A stretch of DNA of 64,000 nucleotides from an uncultured Gemmatimonadaceae bacterium (GTDB lineage Bacteria; Gemmatimonadota; Gemmatimonadetes; Gemmatimonadales; Gemmatimonadaceae), in the NCBI GenBank assembly GCA_963829055.1, contig CAWHHI010000012.1, positions 1-64,000 of the forward strand, in the 5' to 3' direction. The notes beneath the pieces are model-generated. The model was not told the DNA's origin and ran no database searches. It worked only from the letters and a program-made list of their open reading frames with translations. Made by a program: the position numbers and the translations under genes. Position 1 is the stretch's first letter. Every line of letters starts with the position of its first letter. Shown here piece by piece: positions 1-62,682 of the stretch.

Positions 1-460
1 GGTCGAATCGCACCGCGGCCGGGCTGGTCCGCCCCATGTGCAGGTCGGCGAGCACACGGCCGACGGCGCGCGAGAGCGATACGTCGAACCGAGTGATCGC
101 GGTGTCAGAGTCGAACGACGCGGCCGTCGCGCCGCGGAGCCAGTCCACGTCGTAGTCCGCAGGCTCGAGCCCTTTGGTCTCGACGGCTGCCAGAAAATCG
201 ACCGCCTGAAGCGCCTGTCGCGTCGGTAACCGGTGCCGACTCCAAAGCGGGGTGAAGGACTGCGCGCCGTAGAGCTTCAGCAGTGCCTGCGTCACCCCGC
301 GTCGTTCCTGCGCGCTGTCGCGACCGACCTCCCGCATGGCCAGGTCGCGGGGCCTGGACGGGGCCGCGTTAGGCGCCTGACCCGCGGCCACGCGCGCGAG
401 CGCGCCAATGCCGAGGAGGCTGGCTCGCGCGAGCCAGCGGGTGCCGCGTCGCCACCGCAT
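1..460 (-). CDS. L,D-transpeptidase (YcbB/LdtD-like), N-terminal part; runs off window; one frameshift
   Basis: Manual minus-strand translation: signal-like MRWRRGTRWLARASLLGIG..., then LYGAQSFTPLW...ETKGLEPADYDV...FDVSLSRAVGRVLADLHMGR, typical of the YcbB scaffold region. Confidence 0.65.
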   Translation of the reverse strand, partial: MRWRRGTRWLARASLLGIGALARVAAGQAPNAAPSRPRDLAMREVGRDSAQERRGVTQALLKLYGAQSFTPLWSRHRLPTRQALQAVDFLAAVETKGLEPADYDVDWLRGATAASFDSDTAITRFDVSLSRAVGRVLADLHMGRTSPAAVRFD

Positions 461-468
461 GAGACAGC

Positions 469-1047
469 TCAGCGTCGCGGAAGGGCGCCCTCGGCGACAA
501 TGCCCGTCTCATAGGTCGGGACAGTGGCATCCGCCGATACGACGAATCGCAGGTAGCTGCCCACGACGGCGTGGCCCGGAACCCCACAGGCCAGCCAATA
601 CGCGCCGGGCGTTGCCGCGGTGAACGTGATGTCGTCCTGTCGCGCGCCAGCTGGGAGCCCGCTCTCCCACGCGCGCGACGCCGCGCCGACGAATGCCGGG
701 TTTTGGGTACTCGCCGGAACGTACTTCTGCGCTCTCACCACCCCCACCGAGTGCGGGATGACATCGGCGTTGACGAAGGCAATCCGAACGCGCCAGCCCG
801 CCGGGATGGTGATGCGGTGACTTCCGCGGAAACCGCCGTTGAGATTGAAGCCGCTATGCGATTTGTCATAACCGGCCGTCACGCTCAGCTGGACTTCGCG
901 AGCGTCCGCGTCGTACCGCATGAAGTCGGGGTCCGGTCGTGCGACACCGCACACCATCACGATCAGGGTGCCCCACAACGCGGCCAGTGTCGTGCGTCGC
1001 AGGCCTGGATGGGCCACATACCATGACGTCGTCATTTGTCCTCCCAC
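469..1047 (-). CDS. Sulfocyanin-like cupredoxin
   Basis: FNLNGG, IPAGWRVRIAFVN, PHS, PGAYWLACGVPGHA motifs; N-terminal hydrophobic segment. Confidence 0.8.
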   Translation of the reverse strand: MGGQMTTSWYVAHPGLRRTTLAALWGTLIVMVCGVARPDPDFMRYDADAREVQLSVTAGYDKSHSGFNLNGGFRGSHRITIPAGWRVRIAFVNADVIPHSVGVVRAQKYVPASTQNPAFVGAASRAWESGLPAGARQDDITFTAATPGAYWLACGVPGHAVVGSYLRFVVSADATVPTYETGIVAEGALPRR

Positions 1048-1585
1048 TTACGTCCCGCCTGAGCGGGCGCCCCTGCGCTGCTGCGTCATACCGACGCGGA
1101 TCGCTCCCTTGTCTTCATTGAGCGTGCGCTCACGGTACGTCGCCGTGCGGTGCCGCCGCGTCGGGCGAGTGTCGCGTCCGCGGCCGGGATTCCCCGACAC
1201 TGGCTCGGCGGCCGCCCGTTAGGCCGTTGCCCTTCGCTCGACAAACGTCGTTGGTGAGCCCGGCACTAGAGCGAGTCGCCGGAATGAGATCGCACTGACC
1301 CACGTGGTTCCCAAGTCTCGACGAGGCTGGTGGGCATCGCGACGTGTTGTGTCCTCATCGCGCGACCGCACGATGGCTAGCCATCGGCGAGCGAGTCAGT
1401 CGCGCCGCCTAACGCCGCGTGTGTCGATCGCCCCTCACGCTTTGCGCGGATCCCTACCGCGTCAGGCAAACGGGGACGCACGACCGGCGGTTGTCGGACT
1501 ACGACGTGCAAGCTCGGACGTATCTTCGCAGGAGGCCGAGTGGCTAGTGTCCCTGGTGTCGTGAATCCCCGCGTGGAGGCCCCCC

Positions 1586-3760
1586 ATGCAGTACCGCATC
1601 CGACGATTCCGCCGACCGACCGCCACACTCCGTGTGCTGGTCGTGTCCCTCGCGTCACTGGCCTCGGCCGTGGCGTGCAATGAACAGGATAGACTCCCAA
1701 CCGGTCCGCCAACGGCGATACCCGTGGCGCCGCAGGCCGCAATCCTCGGCGCGACTACCACCAACATCCCGTTCAGCGTCGCCGCACTCAACGATGCGGG
1801 ACAGGTGGTCGGAACACAGCAGTCCGGAGCAACGTGGCGCGCTCTGCTCTGGGCACCGAGCGGCGCCGTGCAGGACCTCGGTACGCTCGGCGGAGCGTCG
1901 AGCTGGGCGTACGGGATCAACGAGCCCGGACAGGTCGTCGGCGCCAGCCTCACCAGCACGGGTGAGCAGCATGCGTTCCTGTGGACGCCTGGCCAGGGTA
2001 TGCAGGATCTCGGCACACTCGCCGGTGCACGCTCGAGCATCGCGCGTGGCATCAACGACCAGGGGCAGGTCGTGGGCGAGAGCACTTTCCCTCCCGTCCC
2101 GCCTCGCCAGCCGGCGACGCACGCGTTCGTCTGGTCGTCAGGTGGTGGAATGCAGGACCTCGGCACGCTCAACCAGAGCCTCACGTCCAGCATTGCCTTC
2201 GATATCAACAACGCGGGACAGGTTGTGGGTCGAGCGTTGTCGGCCGACCAGACGATCTTCCCGCCGACTGACCCCGGAATTCTTCTCGCGCGCGTTTCTC
2301 TGGGCGCCGGGGCAAGGCATGCGCGACCTCGGCGATCTCGGCGGCGCGCACAGCGTTGCCTACGCGATCAACGATGCCGGACAGGTCGTGGGCAGAAGCT
2401 GGTTGTCCACCATCATCCCGGACTACGGCCAGGTCTATCGCGCCTTCCTGTGGACGGCAGACCAGGGCATGCGCAACCTCGGCACGTTAGGCACGGGGCC
2501 CAGCGCAACCACCGCGTACGCGATCAACGAAGCCGGGCAGGTGGTCGGCACGCATGACACCGGGCCCTTCTTCCTTGGCAACCTGGTCCAGGGATTCCTA
2601 TGGACCGCCGAGGATGGAATGGAAGCCCTCACGCCTTCAACCGGCATCCAGAGACCGCGAGACATTAATGACCATCAACAGGTCATCGGGGACGGGCGCG
2701 TGGCCACGCTCCACATCAGCGCCGGCAACGTCCCGCCTGTCGCAGTCCCTGGCGGCCCGTATTCAGGCACGGAGGGTTCCCCCGTGCAGCTCGACCTGGC
2801 AGCCACGGACGTAGATGACGTTGGCTTCTCGTATAGCGTGTCGTTCGGCGATGGCACTCCAACCGCCTTCTTCGACACCCCACCGACCAGCTACACGTAC
2901 ACCGACAACGGCACGTACACGCTGACGCTCACGGTTCGCGACAACCGAGGCGCCACCGACACGAAGACGACGACCGTCACCATCACGAACGTCGCTCCGA
3001 CGATCGTCGCCGGCAGCCTAACGGGGCCGACCAGTCCCATCCAACTGACCGGCGGCAATGCGAGCGCGCCGATCGGCTTCGAGTTCAGGGATCCGGCGGG
3101 AACGAGCGACGTCTACGCGGCCGAGATCGCGTGCGGAAACGGTGTCGTGCTCACGCCGACGAACATCCCCGTGTCGAACACGTACACAGGTAACACGTAC
3201 ACGGGTGGCGTGGGGACGTGGGCTGGCGCCTGCACGTACACCACCGCGGGCGTCTACACGGTACGCGCCACCGTCTCCGACGACGATGGCGGTGTGAGCG
3301 CACCGGCGTTCTTCCAGTACGTCGTCGTCTTCGACCCCACGGGCGGCTCCGTCACGGGCGGTGGGTTCTACGACATCCCCGGGCAGGGGAACCGGAAGGC
3401 GCACTTCACGTTCAGCGCGGAGTTCCTCTCCGGGGACGCGGCCGTGCCTAACGGTGCGGTGAAGTTCTGGATCCCGGGCCGGGAGCTCGACTTCGAGAGC
3501 ACGAGTATCGAGACGCTCGTCGTGTCCGGGGACCGCGCGCAGCTATGGGGAACCGGCACGCTCAACGGAGCACCCGCACGGTTCCGCATCACGGCCGTGA
3601 TGGCCAGACCGGCGGCCACGGCAGCAATGCGGACACGATCCGGGTCGAGCTCTGGGACGCGAGCGGCACGCTGATCTACGACACGCAGCCGGGCGCCGCG
3701 CAGGACGCGCCGGTCACGCAGGCGATTCAGGGCGGCAACATCCAGATTCACCGCGACTGA
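1586..3760 (+). CDS. HAF-repeat lipoprotein with PKD/Ig-like domains and C-terminal beta-rich domain (frameshifted)
   Basis: Lipobox LASAVAC; repeats of AxxINxxGQVVG...HAFLW...MQDLGTLGG; FGDG...YTYTDNGTYTLTLTV PKD motif; pieced from ORFs 1586, 1632 and 3545. Confidence 0.85.
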
Positions 3761-3901: not shown

Positions 3902-5382
3902 GTGCGCTACGCGCGGATTCTTTCCCTGGCGACGCTCGTCGTCGCTGGTGCGTGCGCCGAGCAGGACGTCCCGCCGACGGCTCCACCGCTAGCACGGCAC
4001 GTACACAGGCAACGGCGACCGTCTTGGCGGCCACCGTCATCGTGCTCCCGACTCTCGGCGGCACATTGACGTTCGCGGCCGATATCAACGATGCTGGTGA
4101 AGTTGTCGGATGGAGCTATACGGCGGACGGACAGCAGCACGCGTTTCTGTGGACGGCGGCGGGCGGCATGCGGGACCTCGGCACCCTTGGCGGCGGATCG
4201 AGTAGCGCAGCCTCGATCAACGAGGCGGGGCAGATTGTAGGAACGAGCGCATCAGCGGACGCGAAGAACGCGCGCCACGCGTTTTTGTGGACACCCGGTT
4301 CCGGCATGCGAGACCTCGGCACCCTCGCGGCGCAGTTCAGCGTCGCGACCGGGATCAACGACAACGGGGTTGTGGTCGGAAACAACGTCGTGCTGAACTT
4401 CAGGAACCGCGCGTTCCTGTGGACGTCGGATCTCGGCATGCGAGATCTCGATGCCAACAGCGGCGGGTGGGCTCCGGCGTCGGCGATCAACAATGTCGGA
4501 CAGGTCGTTGGCTACTTCCTGCACGTCGAATGGGCCGGCGAGCGCCTTTCTCTGGAGCGCTGGCGCAGGGAATGCAGGACCTCGGGACGCTGGACGGTGT
4601 GTCTACCGCCGCGCTGGCGATCAACGACGCCGGTCAGGTCGTGGGCTCCACCTGGATCGGCGAGCAGCCGCCGCGAGCGTTCCTGTGGCTGCCAGGCCAA
4701 GGGATGCGAGAGCTCGGCACTCTCGGTGGTGTCGGCACCGAAGCGTTTGGAATCAACGACGCCGGGCAAGTGGTGGGGTATGGCACTACAACCGACGGTG
4801 CGGCGCGTCACGCCTTTGTGTGGACCGCACGGGACGGGATGGAAGACCTGTACCCGCTGACTGGAATGACGGACGCGCGGGCGATCAACAACCGAGGCCA
4901 GGTCGTCGGTGGCGATCGCGTCGCAACGCTGCGCTTTCAGACGCCTAACGGCGCTTCCGACGCCGCGAAGGGCAGCGGTTCTACGTCGCTGCCGGGCAGC
5001 CAAAGACGCAAGGCGCACTTCACGTTCAGTGTCACGTTCCTCCTCGGAGGCCAGACGGCGCCTAACGGGGCCGTGCAAGGTTCTGGATTCCGGGCTCGCG
5101 GATCGATTTCGAGAGCGGCGTCATCGAGATGCTCGTCGTATCGGACAACCGCGCGCAGTTCTGGGGCACCGGCACGCTCGACGGCGCACCGGCGCGATTC
5201 CGGATCACGGCCGTGGACGGACGCCAGTCGGGCCGTGGCCGATGCGATCGCGGACGCGTTCCGAATCGAGCTCTGAAACGCGAGCGGCACGCTCGTATAT
5301 CGACACTCAGCCTGGGACCGCGCCGGATGCACCACTCACCACCGCGATCGATGGCGGCAGCATCCAGATCGACCATCAGTGA
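3902..5382 (+). CDS. HAF-repeat lipoprotein lacking the PKD module (frameshifted)
   Basis: Lipobox VVAGAC; HAF repeats; same KAHFTF...PNG...AQFWGTGTL C-terminal domain as its neighbours. Confidence 0.8.
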
Positions 5383-5601
5383 TGGCGCAGCGCTGCGGCC
5401 GTCGTTAGGCCTGCCGCGAGTCGGGAACGTCGTGCCACTGGTCCGCTCCCCGACGCCCATGAGACGGCGGTATGACTCCGCGATGTTCTCCGGTGGCCCG
5501 TCGGGTAAACTGGGACGCACCAACCGGGAGCCACCGGACTACGTACCGACGCGGACGGCCTAGCTTCGCAAGTAGTGAAGCTCAGACTGAATGGAGGTCC
5601 T

Positions 5602-7697
5602 ATGCAGCCCCGTGTCCAACAGGCCAGCCGGTCGGCGGCCGTGTTCCGTGCGCTCACCCTTGCCTTGGCGGCAATTGCCCTGGCTTCGGCGTGCGATGAG
5701 CACGACCGACTTCCGACGGCGCCGCCGATCACCCGCCCGGCGCGCCGCAGGCGGCGATCGTCGGGGCGAACGTCACCAGCCTCCCGTTCACACCCGTCGC
5801 CATCAACGAGTCCGGTCAGGTGGCGGGGTCAAGCGGTCAAGCGTGGGAGGAAGTCACGCCGTGCGGTGGTCACCGAGTGAAGGCGTACAGGACCTGGGAA
5901 CACTCGGCGGAACCGCCAGCACCGGCTACGCCATCAACGAGGCTGGGCAGGTCGTCGGTTCGAGTTCCACGTCGGGCAATACCGAAACTCACGCGTTCCT
6001 CTGGACGCCCGGGCATGGCATGCAGGACCTCGGCACCCTGGGCGGGACCTCCAGCACCGCCCGCGGATCAACGACGCGGGGGAGGTCGTCGGTGACAGCT
6101 ATCTCGCGAGTGGCGGCCGGCACGCGTTCGTCTGGACACCTAACGAGGGCATGCGCGACCTGGGTGCGCTCGGCGGCAGTTTGGATCTCTCCCAGAGCAT
6201 TGCGTACGACATCAACAACGTCGGGCAGGTGGTGGGCGAGAGCTTCAACCGCTTCAGTCGGGAGCTCACGCGCGCGTTCCTCTGGACCGCAAACTCCGGT
6301 ATGCAGTACATCGGCGGCCTCGAACCGCGGACCGGTAGCGGTATCGCCTACGCCATCAACGACGCTGGGCAGGTCGTGGGGCAGAGCTGGACCGACAGCG
6401 GGGCCATATCACGCGTTTCTGTGGACGTCGTCGCAAGGCATGCGCGACCTCGGGACCTACATGGCGTTCAATAGCGCGGCCTACGGCATCAACGAAGCCG
6501 GGCAGGTCGTCGGTATCGGCGACATCGGACCAGGGCTGCGAAACGCCGCCGCATTCCTGTGGAGCGAAGCAGAGGGCATGGAGGGTATCTGGCCGACTAC
6601 GGGCATTGGCTTTCCGCGCGACATCAACGACCACCTGCAGGTCGTCGGCTCCGGTCGCGTGGCGACGCTCCAACTCCAACCCGGCAGCCGCCCGCCCGTA
6701 GCCAGCGCCGGCGGACCCTACACGGGCGTCGAGGGTTCGCCGGTCAAATTCGCTCTCTCGACGAGCGACCCGGATGGCGATGCGGTCTTCTCGACGTGGG
6801 ACTTTGGCGACGGCACCACCGGCTGGACGGACGGGGACCTCTCGCTGCAGCCTGAGTCACGTCTATCAAGATGACGGCACATTCGCCGTCACCGTGACCG
6901 TGCGAGACACCAAGGGCAACACGGATACGAAGACCACGACCGCCACGATCGCCAACGTCGCCCCGTCCATCGCGACCGGCGGCCTAACGGGGCCGTCGGC
7001 GCCCATTCAGCTCCTCGGCGGGAGCGCGGACGCGGCGATCACCGCTCGCCTTTTCGGACCCTGCGGGCAAGCGCGACACGTACGCCGCCGAGGTGCAGTG
7101 CGGCAACGGCACGACGCTCTCGCCTAACGGGATCACGTCACCGTACACGGGTACGTGCACGTACGCGAGCGCGGGAGTCTATACCGTGCGCGCGACCGTG
7201 TCCGACGAGGACGGCGGCGCGAGCGCGCCGGCGTTGTACGAATACGTCGTCGTGTACGACCCGGAGGGCCCGTCGGTGACCGGGGGCGGGTTTTACAGCA
7301 TCCCCGGCCAGGGCGACCGGAAGGCGCACTTCACGTTCAGCGCCGAGTTCGCCTCTGGGCAGCCAGCCGCGCCTAACGGGGCCGTGAAGTTCTGGATCCC
7401 GGGCCGGGCGCTGGACTTCGCGAGCACGGCCCTCGAGCTGCTCGTCGTGTCGGGCAACCGCGCGCAGTTCTGGGGCACCGGCACGCTCAACGGCGCCGCG
7501 GTGCGCTTCCGAATCACCGCCGTCGACGGGCAGCAGGGCGAAAGCAAGGGGAACAGTCGGGGCGCGGACGCGATCCGCGTCGAGCTCTGGGACGCCGAGC
7601 GGCGCGCTCGTGTACGACAACGCAGCCCGGCGCTGCTCAGGACGCGCCGGTCACGCAGCTGATCGAGGGCGGCAACATCCAGATTCACCGACACTGA
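5602..7697 (+). CDS. HAF-repeat lipoprotein with PKD/Ig-like domains (frameshifted)
   Basis: GGAGG RBS; lipobox LASAC; HAF repeats; WDFGDG PKD motif; paralogous C-terminus ending GGNIQIHR. Confidence 0.85.
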
Positions 7698-7890
7698 GCA
7701 TGGCGCGGGCCAATGCGTCATGGACAGGGCTCGATCGGCGCAGGATGCCTAACGATTCCAGGAGCGCGCGAGCGACCAAGTCCCGCGCCCTGCTCCACCA
7801 ACCTCGTGACGCCCAGCATTCGCAGGACGAGCCTGCCGCCAGGAACAATGCCGACGCCGCTGCTGATCCGAGGCGTCGGAGTAGCCGCGA

Positions 7891-8344
7891 TCAACCCGCG
7901 GCCGTCTTCCGCGTTAGGTCGCTCACGTCGCCGACCGCACCGCGCCGTACATGACCAGTCAGTTCTACCGCGGCCGAGACCGTGTTGTAGATCGTGCCGA
8001 ATTTCCGCACGTTCTGGTGCAGCAGATCCAGGCGCTGGTCGGACTCGTCGGTATCGATCACGAGATCGTAATCGATTCGCGTCATTCGTCGGTGGCGCGT
8101 CTTGCCGCACGCCGTGGACACGCACTGTCGCGCCCTCGAGCCGGAACTTGAGTAACGGGATGACGCGTTCGATGCCCTTGAGCATGCACGCCGCTACCGC
8201 CGCGAGTAGTAGCTCCGCGGGATTGAACGCGTCCGTTCGGCCCGCCGGGTCCGTGTCGAGCGCCAGGACGGCGCTGGGACATTGGTCACCCGTGGCGAAG
8301 GCGGGCGGACCGGTTCGCGTCGCACTCACTGTGTATTCGAGCAT
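7891..8344 (-). CDS. OsmC family protein (one frameshift)
   Basis: FNPAELLLAAVAACMLK motif and IDYDLVIDTD...NVRKFGTIYNTV C-terminus. Confidence 0.8.
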
Positions 8345-9067: not shown

Positions 9068-9124
9068 TGCTCGCTCCGGCGCTTCCGTTAGGCGACGAGT
9101 CGCCGCGGCCAGCCGCGATGCCGC

Positions 9125-9530
9125 TTATCCCGCATTGGCGTGTACCCATGCGGAAGGCGCGGAGAGGAGTGGCCTCCAACGCCTAACGAGATCGCAATAC
9201 GCTTTGCCGACCGGCCTGATCCGGCGGTCCAGATCGAATAGGCCAACAGGATGCTCCTCATTGCGCTCTTCCCGGAGCGAATACTGCCAGTCGATCTGAT
9301 CCGTGAGCGAGTACCAGGTGAACCCGGGCGGATCGGGATCCCCATTGCCCGGAGGCGCATGACCTCGCGCCATTGCTCATTGAGCCACGTCGCGGCGTAC
9401 GGACTCGCGCGGTTCGTCTCGTAGTGGAACAGTGGGAGACGGTAGCGGCGGTAGTATCGCGCCGCGAGCGCGGAAAGCCCGAGCGGATGCTGCTCGGTCT
9501 CCCACGTTCCCGCCGGCGACATGCGGTGCT
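9125..9530 (-). pseudogene. C-terminal fragment of a family-1-like glycoside hydrolase
   Basis: YYRRYRLPLFHYETN, GFTWYSLTDQIDW, HPVGLFDLDRRIRPVG. Confidence 0.65.
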
Positions 9531-51561: not shown

Positions 51562-54183
51562 CCGGCCTAACGAGTCCCGTCCCCCGTGCGTTCCACGACG
51601 CCGACGTCCCGCGGCGCAAATCGCTGAAGACGCTCTCGGCCGCGCTACTTTCGCTCGCGTGGCGAGAGAGTCGCACCGCAAGACGACGACTCTTGCTGTA
51701 CATGTCGTCCATCTCGCTCGGCGTCGCCGCGCTCGTCGCCATCGACTCGTTCGCGTCGAACGTCACCGACTCCGTGCGTGAACAGTCGCGCGCGCTACTG
51801 GGCGGAGACGTTGCGTTCGGTGCGCGGCAAGGCACCTTCACGCCGCGCGCCGACTCGCTGCTCGACTCGCTCGCCGCCACCGGCGTGCGGTTCGCGCGGC
51901 AGACGACGTTCGCGTCGATGGGGCTCGTGGAGCGCACCGCCGGCACGCGACTCGTACAGGTTCGCGCCGTCACGCCCGGCTATCCGTTCTACGGCACGGT
52001 CACAACCGCGCCTGCGGGTAGATGGGCCCAGCTGCAGAACGGTCCGAACGCGCTCGTCGACCAGTCGCTCCTCATCTCGCTCGACGCACGCGTCGGCGAC
52101 ACGTTGACGCTCGGATACGCGAAGTTCGCCATCATCGGTCAGCTCGTGAGCGTGCCCGGCGACCCCGGCATCTCGGCGACGATCGGGCCGCGCGTGTTCA
52201 TCCCGGCTGCGTACGTCGATTCGACGAAGCTCCTCGGATTCGGCAGTCGAGCGGACTACGAGGCATTCGCCAAGCTGCCGGAAGGTACCGATCCGGCGAC
52301 GTGGCTCGCGCCGTTGCGCCCGCGCTTCGAGCGCAACCGCGTGCGCGCGAGGACGGTCGTCGAGAACGAAGTGAACCTCACCGAGTCCATCGATCAGCTC
52401 AGCGATTTTCTGGGCGTCGTCGGTCTCGTGGCGCTGTTGCTCGGGGGCATCGGCGTGGCCAGCGGCGTGCACGCGTTCGTCGCCCGTAAGATCGACACCG
52501 TGGCGGTGCTGCGTTGCCTCGGCGCAACGAGCCGGCAGGTGCTCATCATCTACGTCCTGCAGGCCGCTGTGATGGGCCTGGTCGGTGCCGCCGTTGGGGC
52601 AGCGCTCGGCGTCGCGATCCAGTACGCGTTGCCGTTCACCATCCGCGACTTCCTGCCTGTCGACGTGCAGGTGTCGCTCGCGCCGAAGGCTATTCTCGTC
52701 GGGCCTGGCGTTAGGCGTCTGGGTCGCGATGGTGTTCGCGCTCCGGCCGCTGCTCGCGCTCCGCAACGTGTCGCCGCTCCAGGCGCTGCGTCGCGACCTC
52801 GACGGTGTGCCCTTCCGGTCGGGCCTGCGTGATTGGCCGCGCGTGCTGGTGAATGTCGCACTCGCCGCGAGCGTGGTGCTGCTCGCGGCGTGGCGCTCGC
52901 CGAATCTCAAGACGGCGGTGTGGATGAGCGGCGGGATCGCGGCGGTCCTCCTCGTCCTGCTCCTGAGCGCGGTGGTGCTTTCCGCGCTCGCGCGTCGGGT
53001 GCTCCGAGCGGGCTGGCCGTACGTCGTGCGCCAGGGCGTCGCGAACCTCTATCGGCCGGCGAACCAGACCCGAGCCGTCGTCCTGTCACTCGGGTTCGGC
53101 GCGTTTCTGATTACGACGCTGTACCTCGTGCAGGGAAATCTTCTTCGCCAGTTCGACCTAACGACCGCAGCCTCACGAGGGAATCTCCTGTTCTTCGACG
53201 TGCAGGACGACCAGGACGAGGGCGTCCAGCAACTCGTCAGGCAGGGCGGCTATGAAGTGATTCAGTCGACGCCGATCGTGACCATGCGGGTGAAGTCAGT
53301 CGGGGGCCAGACAGTAGCACAGATGCAGGCGGACACCACGAGACGCGGCGGGGCGTGGGCATTCCGCCGGGAGTATCGCTCGACGTATCGCGATTCAATG
53401 CAGAGCTCCGAGACGCTCGTGTCCGGCAAGTGGTTCGGCAAGACTCCTGCGGTCGACAGTCAGCCGACGGCCGAGGTGTCGCTGGAACAGGGCGTCGCGA
53501 AGGAGCTGCGCGCGAAGCTCGGCGACGTCATCGTGTGGGACGTGCAGGGCGTCGAGATCCCGACGCGGCTCACCAGTATGCGCGATGTGAACTGGGCGCG
53601 GTTCGAGCCGAACTTCTTCGCGGTGTTTGGCCCCGGGGCCCTCGAGCAAGCACCGAAACAGTTCGTGCTGCTCACGAACGTCCCAGACGGCGCCAGCGCC
53701 GCGCGCGTGCAGCGTACCGTGGTGCAGCGATTCCCTAACGTGTCGGCGATCGATCTCTCGATCGTCCGGAAGACCATCAGCGAGATCGTGGAGCGCGTCT
53801 CGATGGCGATTCGCTTCCTGGCGGTGTTCAGTCTCGCGATGGGCATCCCGGTGCTGTTCAGCGCCGTCGCGGCGACGCGCCGAGAGCGTGTACGCGAGGG
53901 CGTGCTGCTCAAGACGCTCGGCGCGACACAGGGACAGATTCGCCGCATTCTGTTTTCCGAGTACGCGCTGCTCGGCGTGCTCGGCAGCCTAACGGGAATG
54001 GTGCTGTCGTTCGGAGGAGCGTGGGCGCTCCTCCGATTCGTGTTTCACCGCCCGTTCACTCCGGCAACCGGCCCTGCCCTGCTCATCGCCGCCGCGATGG
54101 TACTGCTGACGGTGCTCATTGGCGTGCTGAGTGGCCGGGACGTCTTCCGTACAACACCGATGGCGGCGTTGCGAGAGGCGTAG
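51558..54183 (+). CDS. ybbP: ABC transporter permease, YbbP/FtsX-like (one frameshift)
   Basis: LAWRE, LLGGD, YPFYG, LRCLGA, NLYRPANQT, FFDVQ, LLKTLGA. Confidence 0.9.
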
Positions 54184-54694: not shown

Positions 54695-56688
54695 TCAGTT
54701 CAGCCTAACGACATACACGCGTGCCCACGGAAAGGCGACATTGCCGCCGCCCGGAGACTGCATACGGAACGTGGCCACCGGCGCGCCCGCGTTGCGTTGC
54801 GCCAGGAAGTACACACCCGACCCCGACTGCGCAGTCGTCGTGAACGGCGCACCTGGCGTGAACACTCGCAGGGGGTAGTTCCCACCCGCCGCGCCAGCCA
54901 CCGCGTCACGCATGTTCCAACTGACGTACGAATACCGCGCATCGAGCGACGATACGCCGAGGTTATCGGTGTAATTCGCGATCAGCCATCCCGGAGATGA
55001 TCTGGTCGAACGGCACTCCTGCCCGCTGCACGAGGTTCGTGACACTGATCTGCGGGCCCGCGACGAGCCGGCGGAAGAATGCGCGCGCGTTCCCGGGTGC
55101 GTAGTGATCCGCGGTGTAGCGCAGCAACGCCCAGGCCGCGCCGCGAGGGCCGAGGTCCTTGTCCGCATTCGAGCCGATGGGAGACGAGGTATCCGGACGT
55201 ACCAGCCACGTCGAGAAGCGCGCCAGGTTCTGCTGGAAGAATGCGTTGTAGTCGTCCGTGTTCGTGCGAACGTCCGAGAACGACAGGCTCTGGAAATCCC
55301 CGAACCCACGCGACGCGCGACCGACGGCTTCCTCGGCGAAGTGCGACAGTCCCTCGTTCAGCCAGTCGACCTCGAAGGAATCGGCGTCGGGGTTGAACTG
55401 ACGGATGCCCTGGTTGATCATGTGCTGGAACTCGTGCGCGATGGTGCCGCGCGTCGACTGCCTAACGAGCGCCGTGGAGCGGGGGTCGCCGAACGTGCCG
55501 GAGGGGTCCGCGGCGAGCAGATAGAACACTTCCTGCTCGTTGGTCTGCGGGCAGCTGATGGGCGGGCTCGCTGCCTGGTAATCCGCCTTCGTGAACAGGT
55601 CGCCGCCCCAGAAGAACCCACCGATGTAGCTGTTCGATCCCTTCGGCGTGAACTTGTTCACTTCGGGCGTATACAGGATCGTGACTCGCCCGTCTTTATT
55701 GATGTCCGTCGGCGCGCCGAACCACGACGTGTCGGTCTTGAAAATGAGATCGTCGAACTCGGCGGCGATCGCGGTGAAGTCTGCCGCAGTGAATCCGTTC
55801 GCCGCGGCGTTCACATCCAACGCCACCTGCACCTTCTTGCCGACCGCCTTCACGACGCCGCGGACGGAAAAGAAGCTCGTGCAGAGATCCGATGCCAATA
55901 CGTCTGGGACTCGGTACGGGATCGTGTCCCCAAGCGCAGCGGCTGCCGCGAGTAAGGAAGGGTGAGCTCCGGATGCAGACCGCGCCACGACGTCACTGGC
56001 TGTTGCGCCTCGCCCCGCCATCGCGCGGACGATACGACCTTCCTGTCGACGAATGCGGTTCTCGATGTTGTCGCGCTGCTCGAGCGATTCGGACACGCGA
56101 CGGAATTCGGCCGAGAGGCCGTTCGCTGACGACGGACGCGGCCGGCGACACTGATGCGACCGTGCCGTTCTGCAGCGAAACCGCGAACGTCTGCTTGTCG
56201 TCCGGCGTCGGATTCGCGTTGGCGGTGATGAACAGGAGCTGGCTCGCCGCGGCGGACGATGCCAGCGTTATGCAGGACACGGCGGCGGGGCCGCTGAGCA
56301 CCGACACCTGCCCGACCGCCAATGTGAGCGGGTTCGCGCATCGATCCACGTCGACGGTCAGCGGCAGCGTGCCCTTGGCATTGTCGGCCTGAGCCGTGAT
56401 CGTAACGGCACCTGGAGCCACGGCCGTGATGAGGCCCTTCTGATCGACGGTCGCGACAGCGGCACTGCTCGTACTCCACGTCGGTGTCTTCGACGCGACG
56501 TCATCACCCTTCGAGTTGATCAGCCGCGCAGTCGCGGTCATCGTCGCGCCAACCTGCAGCGAGGGCGCCGGCGCGCTCACGACGATGTTCGTAACCGTCG
56601 TCGCTGACGGCGCGCTCGGGCCATCGCTGCACGCGCCGACAAGTGCGCACATCGTCACGATCGCCGCGAACGAAGCAACTGTCTTCAT
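54695..56688 (-). CDS. Ig-like (Big_2) lipoprotein with zinc metallopeptidase-like domain (frameshifted)
   Basis: Lipobox LVGAC; WSTSSAAVATVDQKG; TIAHEFQHMIN...WLNEGLSHFAEE. Confidence 0.8.
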
Positions 56689-58166: not shown

Positions 58167-58487
58167 AAAGGGATTGGTGAGAGCGTGTGGAGTGGCGACT
58201 GGCTGCCAGGATCGCGCAACGATAACGAGCCGCTTCTAACTCTCGCCACCCTATTGCGGTGGACGGTTCGGAATCGCGGCGGCGCTACACGAACGGTGGC
58301 GGGTCGTTCTCCTATGGACGCCTCAATCCTACGCCCGCAATGCGCTCGCACTACCTGACCGAACGAACGCCGGGGCTCCGGGATTCATCCAGGAACCGGT
58401 CCGCGTCGAGGAGCTGGACGCCTGCCTAACGATCGTCTTCGGGAGCGCGTCGGGCCGACCGGACGACCGTCAGCCGGACGACACCGG

Positions 58488-59612
58488 TCACTGACCGGTC
58501 AGCGCCTGATCGAGATCGGCGATCAGGTCGTCCGCGTGTTCGAGCCCGATCGAAAGACGGAGCAGGTTATCCGGCGTTCCGCTGTCCGGCGATTCGACCG
58601 AGGCGCGATGCTCGATCAGACTTTCAGGGCCGCCGAGGCTCGTGGCGCGCGTGAACACGCGGACACGCGCCTTCGTGCGCAGGGACGCTTCGCGCCCGCC
58701 GCGCACCTGCACCGACACCATTCCGCCGAACGCGGTCATCTGCCGAGCGGCTATGTCGTGACCGCGATGCGACGCGAGTCCCGGATAGTGGACCGCCTCG
58801 ACGTTCGCGTGCGCTTCGAGGAATGAAGCGATCGCCATCGCGTTCGCGGAATGTGCACGAACGCGATGCGGAAGCGTCTTGATGCCTCGGACGACGAGCC
58901 AGCAGTCGAATGGCGCGGCAATGGCGCCACCGGCTGTCTGCACCAGGCGAACACGCTGGAAGAAGTCGTCATCCTCGCGCGCGACGATCGCACCTCCCAT
59001 GACATCGCCATGCCCGCCCAGGTACTTCGTGGTGGAGTGCATGACGAGATCGGCCCCGAGGTCCAGCGGCCGTTGCCCGATGGGTGTTGCCCACGTGTTG
59101 TCTACCGCGCAGCGAGCGCCGGCGTCGTGCGCCAGCGTGGCGATCCGCGCGATATCGGCGACGGCGAGCAACGGGTTGGATGGCGTTTCGACCCATACGA
59201 GCCGCGTCCGCGGGCGAATGGCTCCGGCGACGTTCTCGGCGTCGCGCATATCGGCGCCGGTCATCGTTAGGCCCCAGCGGCCGAACACCTGATCCATCAG
59301 CTTGCGCGTGCCGTAGTACACGGACTCCGGCAACACGACGTGGTCTCCCGGCGACAGCGCCTGGAACACCGCCATGGTGGCGGCCTGACCCGACGAGAAC
59401 GCCGCAGCCGCTGCACCGGCCTCCAACGTCGCGAGCACTCGCTCGAGCGCCATGCGGTTCGGATTGGCGTCGCGCGCGTAGATGAAGCCATGCGGCAGCG
59501 AGCCGTCGGCGGAGCGCTCGAACGTCGTCGAGAGGTAGATCGGTGGGGCGACCGCGCCGGTCGCGGCATCAGGGCCGTGTGCGCCGTGTACCGCGAGGGT
59601 GTCGGGATGCAT
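58488..59612 (-). CDS. Cystathionine gamma-synthase/lyase family PLP enzyme
   Basis: PPIYLSTTF, ETPSNP, VDNTWATP, HSTTKYLGGHGD, SLGGPESLIEH. Confidence 0.93.
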   Translation of the reverse strand: MHPDTLAVHGAHGPDAATGAVAPPIYLSTTFERSADGSLPHGFIYARDANPNRMALERVLATLEAGAAAAAFSSGQAATMAVFQALSPGDHVVLPESVYYGTRKLMDQVFGRWGLTMTGADMRDAENVAGAIRPRTRLVWVETPSNPLLAVADIARIATLAHDAGARCAVDNTWATPIGQRPLDLGADLVMHSTTKYLGGHGDVMGGAIVAREDDDFFQRVRLVQTAGGAIAAPFDCWLVVRGIKTLPHRVRAHSANAMAIASFLEAHANVEAVHYPGLASHRGHDIAARQMTAFGGMVSVQVRGGREASLRTKARVRVFTRATSLGGPESLIEHRASVESPDSGTPDNLLRLSIGLEHADDLIADLDQALTGQ

Positions 59613-59649
59613 GTCGATCGGGAATCGGGAATCGGGAATCGAAGCCAGT

Positions 59650-60742
59650 TCAGTCGCGACCGGACGCGTTAGGCTTGCCGCCCGGCTTCCATTCCGGCTT
59701 CGTCGCCGAATCGGCGAGCAGGCGCGCGGCTCGTACCGCGACGTCCACGAGTCTCGTCATGTGCGCGAAATCAACGTGCGACACGTCGTCCTTCAGCGTG
59801 TGGTAGTCGGTGTGCATGTTGTACGACGACAACGTGTGCGCCACGATGCCGCGCTGCGCGAACGCAATGTTGTCGCTGCGCATGAAGAAGTCCTGGTCGA
59901 GGCGGCGATCGGCAACGATCGGCAGGCCTGCTGCGGCGAAGGAAGCGCCCATCGTCGATCGCTCGAACCCCGTCAACCAGCCGCGACCCGCGCCGCCGGC
60001 GAGCGAGTCGGGTCGGCCGATCATCTCGATCTCGAGGTTGGCCACCATCGCGCTCAGCGGCCGAACGGGATGCTCGATGTACCAGCGCGTGCCGAGCAGG
60101 CCGACCTCCTCGCCGGTGGTTGCCGCAACGATTACCGTGCGCTTCGGCGGCGGTCCGGCCGCCAGCGCACGCGCGATCTCGAGCACCGCCACGACGCCGG
60201 AGGCATCGTCGTCGGCGCCATTGAAGATCGAGTCGCCGGCTGACGGCGCTGCCCAGCCCGAGATGATCGTAGTGCGCATCGACGAGCACGACCTGATCGC
60301 GCAGCGCGGGATCGGCGCCCGGAATGATGCCGACCACGTTCACGGCGGCCGGGCGTGCCTCGGCAGGTAGCGTGTCGCGCGCGGCCAGGGATGGCAGCAA
60401 CGACAGCCCTTTACCTCCGGCTTGTCGTGCGACCGGAACGCGCTGGAAGTAGCCGCTGTCACCGGCAGCCTGCACACCGTATCGTGCCAGCTCCGCGGCG
60501 ATGAAGCGCGCGGCGCGCGCCGATCCGGGAGTGGCTGTGCCGCGCCCCTGCATGGAATCGTCCGCGAGCGCGCCGAGCAGTCGCCGCACGTCGGACTCGC
60601 TGACGCCGGTGGCCGGCTGCGTCACGGGAGTGGGCAGCTGCGACGGGGGGGCCGAGGAGACGGTCACTCCGCGAGAGCATGCGCCGGTCACGAGTAGACC
60701 CGCGAGAAGAACGCGACGTCCGAGGAAGCGCAGCCTGTGCAT
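59650..60742 (-). CDS. M28 family peptidase lipoprotein (one frameshift)
   Basis: AHYDHLG, NGADDDASG, GEEVGLLG, RSDN, DYH. Confidence 0.9.
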
Positions 60743-60941
60743 TGTACGGTAGCTGACTGGAGAAAGGTCAGCCGTACGGCGAAGCGCGGCTGCCGGTCGG
60801 GACAATGGTGCTGCGTGGGACGTAAGCGTCGCATCAATCGCCGCGCAACCCGTCGTCGGCTCGCGCCGTGCGGTACCCATGCCTATACTGGCATGGACAC
60901 TCGCTTCGAGCCGCGTCTCGAACCGACCGGAGTACGAATCG

Positions 60942-62682
60942 ATGCTTCTCCTCGCCTCCCTTCCCCGCGCGCTGCCCGTCGTCCTGTCGCTGGCAATGCA
61001 GCCGGCCGCAGCCACGCAGTCGTTCCTGCCCAGGTCAAAGGCCGTCGATGAGCCCCGACTCCGCGCGCGTGCTCAAGAGCGCGCGGGCGGCGCAGTGGGA
61101 TTTCGAAAGTACTCGGCGCGCGAACCTGCCGATCACCCCACGAGGATCGTCCGGCCGCTGCGACGTGCGCGTCGGGCGGTTCTGCTACTGGTGGGACGAC
61201 GGTGAGTACGATCCGCCCCCCGAGCTGCCGAAGACCAAGTCAGCTCGCAAGGCCCTGCTCGAGCGACTCGCCAACGCCGCGGCGAGCCAGCCAGGCGATC
61301 GGTGGATTGCCGGTCAGCGCGTGCGCTATCTGGTCGAGGACGGCCAACCGCAAGCGGCCGTACAGGCGGCACGCGAGTGTCGCGCCGAATCCAGCTGGTG
61401 TCCCCTGCTCGAAGGTTTCGCGCTGCACGCGGCCGGCGACTTCGCGCATTCCGACAGCACGTTCAGTGCGGCGCTCGCGGCAATGTCCGAGCGCGACCGC
61501 TGCCGGTGGACGGACATCTCTCTCCTTCTCGAGGGCGATGCGCGCAAGCGGTACGAGCGACTCGCGTGCGCCGAGCGCGGGCCGTTCGAAGCGCGGTTCT
61601 GGGCGCTGTCACGTCCGCTGTATCTGCTTCCGGCGAACGACCTCCGGACCGAGCACTTCGCGCGCCTAACGATGGCGGAGCTGCTGCGCATGGCGCGCTA
61701 TCCGCACGACATGCCGTGGGGGGACGACTCCCGTGAGCTTCTCGTGCGCTACGGCTGGGAGACGGGCTGGTCGCGAGACGTTCCCTCGGCCATGAGCCCA
61801 ATCGACGTGCACGTGATCGGTCACGAGCCGACGCCGGCGTTCGACTTCGTTCCCGATGCGGAAGGACTCTCGAAGCCCGATTCGCTCGAGGCGTCGGACT
61901 GGGCACTCCGTGACCCTGCCGCCCAGAGCCGGTATGCGCCGCGTTATGCACGATCGATCGGCGATCTCGACTCTCAGGTCGCCATGTTCCGTCGTGGCGA
62001 TTCGGCGCTCGTCGTGGCGGCGTTCGATGCCCGGCGCGATACGGCGTTCACCCACGACTCCATCGATGCGGCGCTCGCAGTGGCGCCAGCCGCCGCGCCG
62101 GATTCCGCGCGCGTCGTCAGCGATTCCGTCGCGCGCCGCAGCGCCGTGCTCACATCGTCGGCCCCGTGGGCTCCGCTCATCGTGAGCGTCGAGGCGTTCG
62201 ACTCGGCGGCGCGACGCGTACGGCGAGCGCGATCGGTGGTGCGCCCGCCGCTGTCCGAAGGCCGAGTTGCCGTGTCGGACCTGTTGCTATTCGACGATCC
62301 CGCTGCACTGCCGACGTCGTTGGACGACGCCACGCGCCGCGCACGCGGCTCGATGCGCGTCGAGCGAACGATACCGGTGGGCGTGTACTGGGAGATCTAT
62401 GGAGTGCCGCCCGACGGCGAAGCGCTGGCCTACACGCTCACGGTGACGCGCGATGGAACATCGTGGTACCGTCGTGCGGCGGAGAAGCTGGGCGTCATCG
62501 ATCGACGGGCACCGGTCTACATGCAATGGGATGAGCCGGCGTCGCGCGTCGATGCATCGCGGTCCCGCGCGATCTCGGTCGATTTCTCTACCCTTCCCGA
62601 GGGCAGGTACCGTATCGACCTAACGCTGACTGCGGGAGGCCAGGCAACAGCGACGGCGAGTCGGGTGGTGGAGGTGAAGTAA
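60942..62682 (+). CDS. Hypothetical exported protein
   Basis: Long ORF with typical codon usage; signal-like start in adjacent frame; ELLVRYGW motif. Confidence 0.7.

Follow-up and report, generated by a model that had tools for sequence, protein, structure and literature searches.

The window analysed here, a 64-kb stretch of DNA from an uncultured Gemmatimonadaceae bacterium from soil, raises the question of why one octamer, GCCTAACG, recurs all along it and what keeps the word in place. We found 55 exact matches, 29 on the plus strand and 26 on the minus strand. A sequence-only reading had listed 55 positions and about nine variants; every coordinate and strand proved exact, and the variants are present as seven ACCTAACG and two CGTTAGGT. 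The copies of GCCTAACG, followed by the variants, are given below with coding contexts from our own gene calls, which are incomplete (G-numbers denote genomes).

367..374, minus, in a called gene, sense Pro-Asn (xxG CCT AAC Gxx)
1217..1224, minus, not in a called gene (calls incomplete)
1407..1414, plus, not in a called gene
2485..2492, minus, antisense, gene xCG TTA GGC, Leu-Gly
3016..3023, plus, sense Leu-Thr (xGC CTA ACG), equals 6982 in paralog
3446..3453, plus, sense Pro-Asn, equals 5060 and 7371 in paralogs
4943..4950, plus, not in a called gene, within long ORF 4287-5276
5060..5067, plus, paralog equivalent of 3446
5403..5410, minus, not in a called gene
6982..6989, plus, paralog equivalent of 3016
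7122..7129, plus, sense Pro-Asn
7371..7378, plus, sense Pro-Asn, paralog equivalent of 3446
7747..7754, plus, not in a called gene
9086..9093, minus, TAA is the stop of called gene 9091-9597 (minus)
9181..9188, plus, antisense Leu-Gly
10881..10888, minus, not in a called gene
12017..12024, minus, sense Pro-Asn
12252..12259, minus, overlaps the end of a called gene
13388..13395, minus, not in a called gene
15009..15016, minus, not in a called gene
15584..15591, minus, antisense Leu-Gly
16265..16272, plus, not in a called gene
19207..19214, minus, antisense Leu-Gly
21462..21469, plus, sense Leu-Thr
23074..23081, minus, overlaps copy 23080..23087, forming palindrome CGTTAGGCCTAACG
23080..23087, plus, second half of the overlapping pair with 23074..23081
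24499..24506, minus, not in a called gene
27198..27205, plus, not in a called gene
27703..27710, plus, not in a called gene
27876..27883, minus, not in a called gene
27948..27955, plus, not in a called gene
28165..28172, minus, not in a called gene
30085..30092, minus, overlaps the end of called gene 28264-30087 (plus)
30549..30556, plus, not in a called gene
35784..35791, minus, overlaps the end of a called gene
37991..37998, plus, not in a called gene
38270..38277, minus, not in a called gene
44165..44172, plus, not in a called gene
44528..44535, minus, not in a called gene
44830..44837, minus, not in a called gene, 43 bases before a tRNA gene
45976..45983, plus, sense Leu-Thr, MarR/cyclase gene
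46944..46951, minus, overlaps the end of a called gene
47089..47096, minus, not in a called gene
47335..47342, plus, not in a called gene
48655..48662, plus, tRNA-tRNA spacer
48706..48713, plus, tRNA-tRNA spacer
51565..51572, plus, in ABC-transporter ORF 50091-52832, retained in G003 but not G001
52709..52716, minus, in ABC-transporter ORF 50091-52832, missing from the aligned position in G001 and G003
53987..53994, plus, sense Leu-Thr, kept in G001, GTCTGACG in G003
54703..54710, plus, antisense Val-Arg
55460..55467, plus, antisense Val-Arg, kept in G001, GCCGCACG in G003 and G004
58424..58431, plus, GCCTAACA in other strains (58431 G>A, 3 runs)
59265..59272, minus, sense Leu-Thr, Cys/Met PLP gene, kept in G002, G003 and G004
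59667..59674, minus, sense Pro-Asn, kept in none of 5 congeners
61664..61671, plus, sense Leu-Thr, kept in G001, G002 and G005, GCCTGACG in G003 and G004
6138..6145, plus, variant ACCTAACG
7912..7919, minus, variant ACCTAACG
11681..11688, plus, variant ACCTAACG
17126..17133, plus, variant ACCTAACG
19650..19657, minus, variant ACCTAACG
25331..25338, plus, variant ACCTAACG
38436..38443, plus, variant ACCTAACG
53156..53163, plus, variant ACCTAACG
62618..62625, plus, variant ACCTAACG

The abundance of the word exceeds what base composition predicts. In 100 dinucleotide-preserving shuffles of the window it occurred 1.31 times on average and at most 5 times, compared to the 55 copies observed. Across the whole genome (7.78 Mb) there are 5,004 copies and, as had been claimed for the window, the strands are used alike (2,457 and 2,547). 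All 20 contigs carry the word at densities between 0.48 and 0.80 per kb, which excludes confinement to this contig. Markov models of order 0, 1, 2 and 3 predict 149, 66, 50 and 127 copies per strand, that is 100-300 for both strands together, and at orders 2 and 3 the z score of GCCTAACG tops those of all 8-mers genome-wide. At order 4 and above the excess vanishes, since the 5- to 7-mers contained in the word itself enter the training of these models. The tetramers CTAA/TTAG, rightly described as scarce otherwise, occur 102 times in the window; 55 of these lie within the octamer and 73 within CCTAAC. The flanks of the word are not conserved apart from codon periodicity. GCCTAACG is a real, genome-wide and unpolarised signal of the USS/DUS/HIP1 kind, and apparently an undescribed one.

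Codon usage does not account for the excess either: a null model that keeps the amino-acid sequence and codon usage expects 107.6 coding copies, and we counted 3,341. The word claims 1,334 of the 2,908 TTA codons, and GCC TAA CG ends 20% of the genes with a terminal Ala. Among the contexts that permit the word, 57% of those reading Pro-Asn hold it (930 of 1,625), followed by 22% for Leu-Gly, 20% for Leu-Thr and 11% for Val-Arg. The use of permissive contexts is near saturation and graded by codon cost.

Copies also interfere with each other. With a neighbouring copy within 50 bp only 24 of 731 permissive contexts (3.3%) were used and with one at 50-100 bp 31 of 800 (3.9%), and the rate rose with distance to 11% at 100-200 bp, 19% at 200-300 bp and 26-31% at 300-2,000 bp. 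Neighbour spacings of up to 100 bp numbered 71 compared to 317 expected (41 in the same and 30 in opposite orientation, so the effect holds for both), and the spacing distribution has a gamma shape of 1.45. Other word-rich genera showed the same deficit of close pairs (4 versus 23.1 expected in G027, 2 versus 7.8 in G066, 0 versus 2.5 in G162); in the Verrucomicrobiota sample G022 close pairs were not depleted (3 versus 3.1 and 5 versus 3.0). Interference favours a function that is counted per DNA segment and fits uptake or an array of binding sites; any function needing one site per stretch predicts it equally.

Individual copies are partly conserved and turn over. In aligned congeners the word was kept in 9 of 27 cells, a 2.4-fold higher rate than the 14.1% for all other 8-mers; the other alleles differ by point substitutions, and at 6 aligned places only the relative has the word. 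Within the window, the suggested inheritance in HAF paralogs agrees with the alignment of the HAF/PKD paralogs (77-83% nucleotide identity), where 3446 = 5060 = 7371 and 3016 = 6982. Near-variants are enriched genome-wide (ACCTAACG 17x, GCCTAACA 15x, CCCTAACG 9x and GCATAACG 8x), whereas the C>T variants predicted by simple decay are depleted to 0.4-0.5x. Such tolerance resembles that of a putative reader protein.

The word is restricted to certain lineages. Defining word-rich genomes by at least 5x control and the low class by less than 0.5x, we found 56 of 251 Gemmatimonadaceae genomes (16 of 75 genera) to be word-rich and 156 to be low, so that the motif does recur in related genomes. Within genus g53, G123 has only 66 copies compared to 3,244-4,141 in five congeners. 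A Verrucomicrobiota order contains about 5 enriched genomes out of 121, in the dialect CCTAACGA, with an A directly after the word in 76-90% of the copies. In 400 kb of the word-poor relative G008 no other hyper-abundant word was detected (the top 8-mer reached 5x), and therefore the family does not follow a general dialect pattern of the Neisseriaceae type.

We tentatively propose, with somewhat less than even confidence, that GCCTAACG is a lineage-specific self word like USS, DUS and HIP1, kept by a drive of the DNA-uptake type. The word would arise by single point substitutions wherever the sequence tolerates it, in four reading frames, in stop codons and in spacers, and the maintaining force would count copies per DNA stretch and not per site. 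A putative reader protein would handle double-stranded DNA in either orientation and prefer word-bearing fragments, and word-bearing alleles would spread via transformation and recombination up to about one copy per kilobase; a second copy beside an existing one would bring no gain and be lost to codon cost. In abundance, even spacing and override of codon habits, GCCTAACG resembles the tags by which Neisseria and Haemophilus recognise their own DNA. Inverted pairs acting as terminators are typical of DUS but absent here, and no hairpin-forming pairs were found among the copies genome-wide. For HIP1, the octamer most similar in kind, a role as uptake sequence has now been put forward (PMC13756078). 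The ComEC channel gene was found in 5 of 5 genomes searched, equally in the two word-poor ones, so that the trait is not mirrored by competence genes. The ComP_DUS family matched none of 5 genomes, its control likewise matching nowhere, and one distinctive pilin matched word-rich and word-poor genomes alike, in its N-terminus only. We infer a role of the putative reader in DNA uptake or recombination.

Several other explanations have to be weighed against an uptake word. That the word is artefactual or has a trivial origin, be it miscalled bases at a modified motif, base composition, codon usage or leftovers of a dispersed mobile element, is scarcely conceivable. The assembly does have fragmented reading frames and indel errors, with one-base differences at 51326 (4 runs) and 60242 (3 runs) in every run with depth. 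However, Markov and codon-aware nulls fall short 20-50x, unconserved flanks speak against element remnants, and short reads confirm the motif: two short-read congener assemblies (genomes of L001 and L002) hold 3,749 and 4,500 copies, and Logan contigs covering the stretch (4 runs from 4 studies) hold the word at the same places, with 58431 G>A as the single difference inside the 18 words of 44001-64000 among the 40 best supported of 800 differences. These tests refute such causes. A polar chromosome signal such as the recombination hotspot Chi or KOPS/AIMS would likewise be over-represented in its own DNA, and GCCTAACG is lacking in foreign stretches of the genome, yet we consider it very unlikely. 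The replichore check proposed in the sequence-only reading gave no polarity: word strand and GC skew correlate with r = -0.14 (145 windows of 50 kb), strand heterogeneity is not significant (chi2 152 on 145 df), and 2,589 of 4,984 adjacent copies share their orientation. Interference is independent of orientation, no RecC was detected in the 5 genomes searched, and the 30-50x enrichment far exceeds that known for Chi. That reading had also offered three mechanisms without choosing; the type of signal it described stands, whereas interference within ~300 bp speaks against a purely local process of methylation or repair. In such a HIP1-like process, an orphan methyltransferase and a mismatch-correcting nuclease would turn near-matches into GCCTAACG. 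The way GCCTAACG overrides codon usage, and its enriched one-off variants, resemble HIP1, which is over-represented 15- to 300-fold and recognised by two methylases (PMC5861425 and PMC13756078). We nevertheless hold this origin to be improbable, as independently made sites should not interfere across 300 bp and Vsr was not detected in any of 5 genomes (its control matched in 3 of 14). The word is also non-palindromic, and to our knowledge a fully specified non-palindromic 8-bp methylase site would be unusual.

A less improbable, if doubtful, alternative is that GCCTAACG serves a chromosome-bound coverage protein (such as for nucleoid organisation, repair nicking or loading) as its place of binding or nucleation. 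Ordinary selection would keep one site per ~1 kb, a second within ~200-300 bp being redundant. Interference, regular spacing, orientation independence, the 2.4-fold conservation, the reader-like tolerance at outer word positions and the lack of a correlate among competence genes all agree with such a protein. Per-site selection would however have to outweigh codon bias at thousands of places, in up to 57% of the cheap contexts, a core function of the chromosome would hardly be expected to switch on and off within a genus as in g53, and we know of no nucleoid or repair system with thousands of 8-bp non-palindromic sites. The remaining alternative, which we think unlikely, starts from the finding that GCCTAACG is the first box of the local integron attC sites. 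An integron integrase or related tyrosine recombinase would read the word, and genome-wide R boxes of attI/attC type would be places where cassettes dock or land. The G000 integron (IntI at C20:208011-208985; attC at 202788, 205100 and 207187) uses GCCTAACGC; in the cassette arrays of word-poor relatives the attC sites start with the word's 7-mer, followed by G in 23/26, 3/3 and 8/8 cases; and in G022 attC reads GCCTAACGA in 3/3, the same as its genome-wide dialect, whereas the attC flank C of G066 differs from its genome-wide flank. One word in two phyla would be most easily explained by a universal reader fixing the spelling. Against this, 14 of 21 relatives, most of the word-poor ones among them, have an integron integrase scoring above cut-off (G123 has two, and a third slightly below), and three rich MAGs have none. 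An attC partner exists for less than 1% of the copies (38 GCCTAAC..GTTAGGC pairs compared to 26 in a control arrangement), copies inside genes come from point substitution, which recombination cannot write, and no per-site benefit is evident. GTCTAACG, which we take to match the R-box consensus, is depleted (0.42x). An attI1 oligonucleotide includes GCCTAAC (PMC2811028), and genomic sites can serve as targets of cassette insertion by integrases (10.1101/2022.09.11.507474), although GWT suffices for genomic attG sites. The putative reader of an uptake word would have a specificity matching the R box of attC/attI sites in integrons; a pure uptake model does not explain this identity, which points to a recombinase-like reader. 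The sequence-only reading had overlooked that the word is identical to the integron attC/attI core and that it also occurs in a second phylum.

The octamer GCCTAACG, read on both strands and called the word below, occurs at 55 places in the window. The sequence-only reading had counted 29 copies on the plus strand and 26 on the minus strand by hand, and a pattern search returned exactly the same coordinates and strands. The roughly nine variants it had added proved to be seven copies of ACCTAACG and two of CGTTAGGT, and its remark that CTAA/TTAG is otherwise scarce was borne out, as 55 of the 102 occurrences in the window lie inside the word. Across 100 dinucleotide-preserving shuffles of the window the mean was 1.31 copies with a maximum of 5. 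Positions 1586-8600 encode three HAF/DUF3466 plus PKD paralogs with 77-83% nucleotide identity in their common parts. Here word copies are inherited at aligned positions (3446 = 5060 = 7371 and 3016 = 6982), as had been suspected.

The whole assembly of this uncultured soil Gemmatimonadaceae genome (G000; 7,784,024 bases, 20 contigs, 66.5% G+C) holds 2,457 + 2,547 = 5,004 copies, which corresponds to 0.64 per kb. The window is C12:1-64000 of this assembly. The density was 0.48-0.80 per kb on each of the 20 contigs and the word recurs in related genomes, so that a confinement to the contig of the window is ruled out. Per strand of G000 the expected numbers are 149 (Markov order 0), 66 (order 1), 50 (order 2) and 127 (order 3), and at orders 2 and 3 no other 8-mer reaches the z of the word and its complement. 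No excess was seen at orders 4-6 and at the maximal order because these models are trained on the word's own sub-words (7-mers at the maximal order). The fair nulls are orders 0-3 and a codon-aware null. For the latter, which combines the amino-acid sequences with the codon usage of G000, we would expect 107.6 coding copies, a figure already inflated because the word itself feeds codon usage, and observed 3,341 (31-fold). The enrichment claimed from the window thus survives orders 0-3 and the codon-aware null. In G000 1,334 of the 2,908 TTA codons lie within the word, and so do 620 of 4,126 CTA, 930 of 9,191 CCT and 457 of 6,384 AGG codons.

Genes were called with a dicodon model for which ORFs with GC1 > GC2 served as the training set, and the calls cover 76% of G000. 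They are incomplete because of assembly frameshifts, and the count outside the calls is therefore to be read as an upper bound.

Placement of word copies relative to the gene calls of G000.
Sense, xxG CCT AAC Gxx (Pro-Asn): 917 copies
Sense, xGC CTA ACG (Leu-Thr): 617 copies
Antisense, gene reads xCG TTA GGC (Leu-Gly): 1,329 copies
Antisense, gene reads xxC GTT AGG Cxx (Val-Arg): 451 copies
Two stop frames: 23 copies
Gene edges: 370 copies
Outside gene calls: 1,297 copies (upper bound for intergenic)

Sense and antisense copies are balanced (1,549 vs 1,788) and a sense-strand or RNA-level signal is therefore excluded. We compared the amino-acid contexts that are able to hold the word: 57% of the Pro-Asn contexts do so (930 of 1,625), 22% of Leu-Gly, 20% of Leu-Thr and 11% of Val-Arg. 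It follows that occupancy tracks the cost of the rare codons required. The Pro-Asn dipeptide is only mildly over-represented, with an observed/expected ratio of 1.39 vs 1.23 for Asn-Pro, and most copies must therefore be written synonymously. The word is also found at gene ends: 231 called genes terminate in GCC TAA CG, which amounts to 26% of the genes with a TAA stop and 20% of those with a final Ala, and a further 193 end in CGT TAG GC.

Outside the octamer, conservation across 12 bases on each side is limited to the three-base periodicity of coding sequence, with a weak preference at the adjoining positions (C 0.46 and T 0.24 at -1; C 0.39 and A 0.25 at +1). We rejected a dispersed repeat of the REP or MITE type, as there is no conserved sequence beyond the core. 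Where seven positions match, the eighth is tolerant at both ends of the word and at position 3, and the enriched one-off variants in G000 are ACCTAACG (17x), GCCTAACA (15x), CCCTAACG (9x) and GCATAACG (8x). Simple decay would predict the C>T variants GTCTAACG, GCTTAACG and GCCTAATG, but these are depleted to 0.4-0.5x. This combination resembles the tolerance of a reader, that is a protein recognising the octamer, and not mutational debris.

Another possible source of the word was a basecalling artefact, a concern raised with the original observation. The nearest public relatives of one window gene are the short-read soil Gemmatimonadaceae MAGs of loci L001-L004 (80-83% amino-acid identity). 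Within stretches of 3.5-6.3 kb these contain 2-3 word copies, some of them at matching positions in the genes. Whole-genome counts are 3,749 for L001 and 4,500 for L002, both short-read assemblies. Near-identical DNA was found in 20 public runs, which belong to 17 soil, rhizosphere and sediment studies, and the Logan contigs of four of these runs cover window positions 44001-64000 with 18 words. Among the best-supported 40 of 800 Logan differences only 58431 G>A falls within a word, and it produces the tolerated variant GCCTAACA. As both the short-read assemblies and the Logan contigs carry the word, an artefact is essentially excluded.

The same comparison revealed that one base is missing at 51326 (four runs) and at 60242 (three runs) in every public run with depth there. 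Both positions are likely one-base insertion errors in the G000 assembly. The reading frames of an ABC transporter and of a gene around 60.2 kb are broken as a result. More one-base errors of this kind are suggested by broken frames in other places (e.g. 9091-10108), and such frameshifts explain the fragmented gene calls.

G000 contains three large word-free gaps, all at contig ends: C6:5440-55037, C6:591808-623330 and C11:1-46789. Their G+C content is 66-73%, and their genes include those for FtsK, chorismate synthase, DAHP synthase, leucyl aminopeptidase (peptidase M17) and FolD. Each of these housekeeping genes has a second copy elsewhere in G000 at 47-59% amino-acid identity. We considered mobile islands and rejected them in view of the duplicated housekeeping genes and the contig-end location; the gaps probably reflect chimeric joins or DNA of another organism that entered the bin as contamination. 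With the gaps apparently being DNA of another organism, the word sharply separates own from foreign DNA. It is thus usable as a practical marker of own DNA and exposed three probably chimeric contig ends.

The sequence-only reading had proposed a survey of related genomes for the motif, and the word recurs in them. In all seven genomes of the genus of G000 we counted 2,501-5,112 copies vs 255-373 for the control, the word read backwards. A survey of 251 Gemmatimonadaceae genomes from 75 genera, in which the unpublished genomes G026, G051, G052, G148 and G257 count only towards the family tallies, identified 56 genomes in 16 genera at at least 5x the control (rich genomes). A further 23 were at 2-5x, 16 at 0.5-2x and 156 below 0.5x (poor genomes), where the apparent depletion is partly an artefact of the control, as the control has no stop triplet and the word has one in two of six frames. 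Density was highest in genus g14 (1.15-1.34 per kb) and in the genome G201 (1.28 per kb). Content also varies within genera: in genus g53 one genome (G123) holds 66 copies vs 3,244-4,141 in five congeners, and in genus g66 the counts range from 1,100 to 7,821. In a 400-kb sample of the poor genome G008 we found no comparable word of its own (top 8-mer 5x).

Two Verrucomicrobiota MAGs, both chance finds, carry 1,378 (G021) and 1,535 (G022) copies. The top 8-mer of G022 is the shifted form CCTAACGA (125 vs 4.5), and the dialect of this phylum can be written CCTAACGA(G), with A following the word in 76-90% of copies. Of 121 genomes in the order to which G021 belongs, 5 show strong enrichment in CCTAACGA (1,119-2,581 vs 129-192) and about six a moderate one; the others are poor.

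We then aligned congeners with window positions 44001-64000, where they are 73-77% identical in the aligned parts. The word was kept in 9 of 27 aligned cells (word x genome), i.e. 33% vs 14.1% identity for other 8-mers; these cells are non-independent and form a small sample. At six places a relative has the word and G000 does not. The non-word states at aligned places are point variants such as GCCTGACG, GCCGCACG and GTCTGACG, and copies are therefore gained and lost by substitution. On these alignments word sites appear to be somewhat more conserved than the average sequence, even though they use rare codons.

The absence of strand bias noted in the window holds genome-wide, in G000 (2,457/2,547) as well as summed over all rich genomes (81,173 forward, 81,824 reverse). 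Across 145 windows of 50 kb the word orientation follows neither GC skew (r = -0.14) nor gene-strand bias (r = -0.10); GC skew and gene strand are correlated with each other (r = 0.48). Orientation heterogeneity was not significant (chi2 152.5, 145 df) and 2,589 of 4,984 adjacent copies share an orientation. A polarity in genus g52 was considered and dropped, since G162:C1 holds 23 copies on the plus and 27 on the minus strand. In two 7-kb Verrucomicrobiota loci, L061 and L067, all 4 and all 6 copies lie on one strand. This may be local or due to chance, and the contigs of G022 show mixed orientation. Like Chi and KOPS the word is an over-represented octamer that marks own DNA, but those signals are strand-polarised and far less enriched. 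Orientation of the word is not tied to replication direction, and RecC, which reads Chi, was not found in five genomes (PF04257, 0/5; the control matched in E. coli). A signal of the Chi/KOPS type is essentially excluded.

Neighbouring copies in G000 keep apart from each other. We counted 71 spacings of up to 100 bp vs 317 expected, 146 vs 297 at 100-200 bp and 2,776 vs 2,248 at 500-2,000 bp (gamma shape 1.45, CV 0.93). The depletion of close pairs is alike in both relative orientations, with 41 same and 30 opposite pairs at up to 100 bp. The result is alike once the places able to hold the word are controlled for: permissive contexts hold the word in 3.3% of cases with another copy within 50 bp, in 3.9% at 50-100 bp, 11% at 100-200 bp, 19% at 200-300 bp and 26-31% at 300-2,000 bp, and the share is 5% at distances beyond 4 kb from the nearest copy. 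Other rich genera show the deficit at up to 100 bp as well (G027 4 vs 23.1, G066 2 vs 7.8 and G162 0 vs 2.5 expected), and it is absent from the Verrucomicrobiota sample G022 (3 vs 3.1). The interference over ~300 bp provides a length scale for whatever process counts copies. At 23074-23087 of the window two copies overlap as the 14-base palindrome CGTTAGGCCTAACG, an arrangement found twice in G000.

The word shares its spelling with a box of integrons. GCCTAAC / GTTAGGC occurs at the attC sites of the loci L081, L082 and L083, of G000:C20 and of G022:C3. The few copies that word-poor relatives do have cluster in arrays on a single strand, spaced 500-700 bp apart. Those examined are textbook cassette arrays, in which each attC starts with GCCTAACG and ends with [T/G]GTTAGGC with a complementary stem between. 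A search with the 7-mer gave G as the following base in 23/26, 3/3 and 8/8 sites of the attC arrays. An attI1 oligonucleotide likewise holds GCCTAAC (PMC2811028). It is very unlikely that word and integron box share this spelling by coincidence.

G000 itself has an integron at C20:202000-209000, with an integrase at 208011-208985 (265.7 bits, at the family cut-off) and attC sites at 202788, 205100 and 207187. Integrase and cassettes share side and strand, an "inverted" layout. Five lone attC-like sites with full octamers at both ends are found 16-89 kb away (C20:119250-191861). A near-perfect 55-base hairpin at C18:97493-97548 carries the word and its complement at its two ends, and could be a minimal attC-like or terminator-like element. 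In G022 three attC sites beside an integrase fragment all read GCCTAACGA, which matches the genome-wide dialect (3/3 A). The attC flank agrees only weakly with the genome-wide flank in G000 (7/7 C vs 40% C) and mismatches in G066. We therefore discarded a tracking of the dialect by attC flanks, as G066 is contrary and the sites are too few to count.

Among known systems the uptake sequences of Pasteurellaceae (USS) and Neisseriaceae (DUS) are the closest match. They too are short non-palindromic words with thousands of copies at ~0.5-1 per kb and equal strands; they are mostly genic in tolerant frames, lineage-restricted, absent from foreign DNA and partly conserved with turnover, and they come with one-off variants. 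The occurrence of a dialect may be a further point in common. The word differs from them as it has no conserved AT-rich flank and none of the terminator-like inverted pairs that mark DUS and part of USS (just 12 opposite-orientation neighbours within 60 bp in G000). It is also patchy within one family, and the sampled poor relative G008 has no other word instead. Its core is common to two phyla, which are other than theirs, its spelling is that of the integron R box, and it is known from uncultured MAG sequences alone. HIP1 of cyanobacteria (GCGATCGC) is likewise an octamer that is hyper-abundant against codon usage, selectively conserved and non-randomly spaced. HIP1 is reported as conserved by selection and spaced with a ~39-kb period (PMC5861425), as a palindrome recognised by two methylases and present in most cyanobacterial genomes (PMC5861425, PMC13756078), and as a motif whose function was long unknown and is now linked to transformation (PMC13756078; 10.1101/2024.09.10.611283). 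In contrast, GCCTAACG is not its own reverse complement, is confined to a minority of genera, and its spacing reflects short-range interference below 300 bp and not a ~39-kb period. In integrons, attC sites carry R'' and R' boxes of the consensus RYYYAAC/GTTRRRY. The R box and the attI core GTTAGGC, that of attI1 included, are identical to the 7-mer of the word, and attC sites of this order share the eighth base as well. However, attC boxes are paired across an imperfect hairpin of ~60-140 nt in one-strand arrays beside intI, whereas over 99% of the words in the genome occur singly, in genes, on both strands and away from intI.

As the pattern matches USS/DUS and HIP1, we place first a reading in which the excess would result from fragment-level drive or selection tied to DNA uptake and recombination; from this analogy we prefer it tentatively. 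That the copies form a chromosomal array of binding sites seems doubtful to us. A docking site for an integrase-type enzyme would account for the shared spelling, and we consider it less probable again. Integron integrases were found over the cut-off in 14 of 21 relatives irrespective of word content, and the word-poor G123 has two, with a third just under. The G000 words at large do not form attC sites (R''...R' boxes with a hairpin of ~50-150 nt): among 5,004 words we found 38 GCCTAAC..GTTAGGC pairs at an attC-like distance vs 26 in a control arrangement, and only a handful, on C20, are attC-like. Recombination also could not write in-frame substitutions, and genomic insertion by integrases needs only GWT (10.1101/2022.09.11.507474).

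We rate a local methylation or repair process that creates the word site by site as the least probable of these explanations. Sites made one by one by a local enzyme should be independent, yet the copies interfere, which argues for a benefit counted over stretches of a few hundred bases, whatever the orientation of the copies. The preferred uptake-linked reading might be extended to the integron. A reader in the DNA-acquisition machinery could be tuned to the R box, so that box-bearing cassettes would be natural carriers of the tag; lineages of the two phyla with this reader in common would preferentially scavenge cassettes and each other's DNA from soil, and the genome-wide spread of the word would be a by-product of molecular drive. 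This extension is a long shot, to be ranked between docking and local repair. If true, no self tag of the uptake type would have been known before outside Proteobacteria (and Cyanobacteria, should HIP1 qualify), and transformation would be tied directly to the traffic of integron cassettes.

We searched for candidate readers with profiles in the rich genomes G000, G027 and G066 and the poor genomes G123 and G008. Vsr and VirB4 were found in 0/5 of them, as was ComP_DUS (PF16732), for which the control was also silent (0/14 genomes). ComEC was detected in 5/5, word-poor genomes included. A 171-residue pilin of G000 has matches restricted to the N-terminus in 5/5 genomes (G027, G066, G123, G008 and the Verrucomicrobiota G022), rich and poor alike. 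Hence none of Vsr, ComP_DUS, ComEC, RecC, VirB4, this pilin and the integron integrase separates rich from poor. As the trait comes and goes among close relatives (56 rich, 156 poor, and the contrast inside g53), phylogenetic profiling should be able to find the reader gene.

A full-text literature search, subscription journals excepted, returned nothing that pairs an uptake sequence with a Gemmatimonad, and among the matches listed for the two octamers no title or abstract deals with a genomic word; the word is not known to have been described before. To our knowledge short words repeated thousands-fold within genes are known in two bacterial families only and in the cyanobacteria with HIP1, each tied to DNA exchange. 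The word is a third case of such repetition, in abundant uncultured soil phyla, and its integron-core spelling and recurrence in a second phylum hint at a link with gene-cassette traffic.

Two further features of the window concern tRNA genes and a repeat. Seven tRNA genes lie on the minus strand at 48319-49240, with two word copies in their spacers, and one more tRNA gene is located 3.4 kb upstream at 44880-44952. At 54200-54650 we found a dispersed repeat of ~400 bp, itself an inverted repeat, with 302 BLAST pieces in G000. All five congeners contain short cores of it at 89-96% identity. The repeat resembles a MITE and probably accounts for the second-tier over-represented words GGATGACA and CATTCCGAG.
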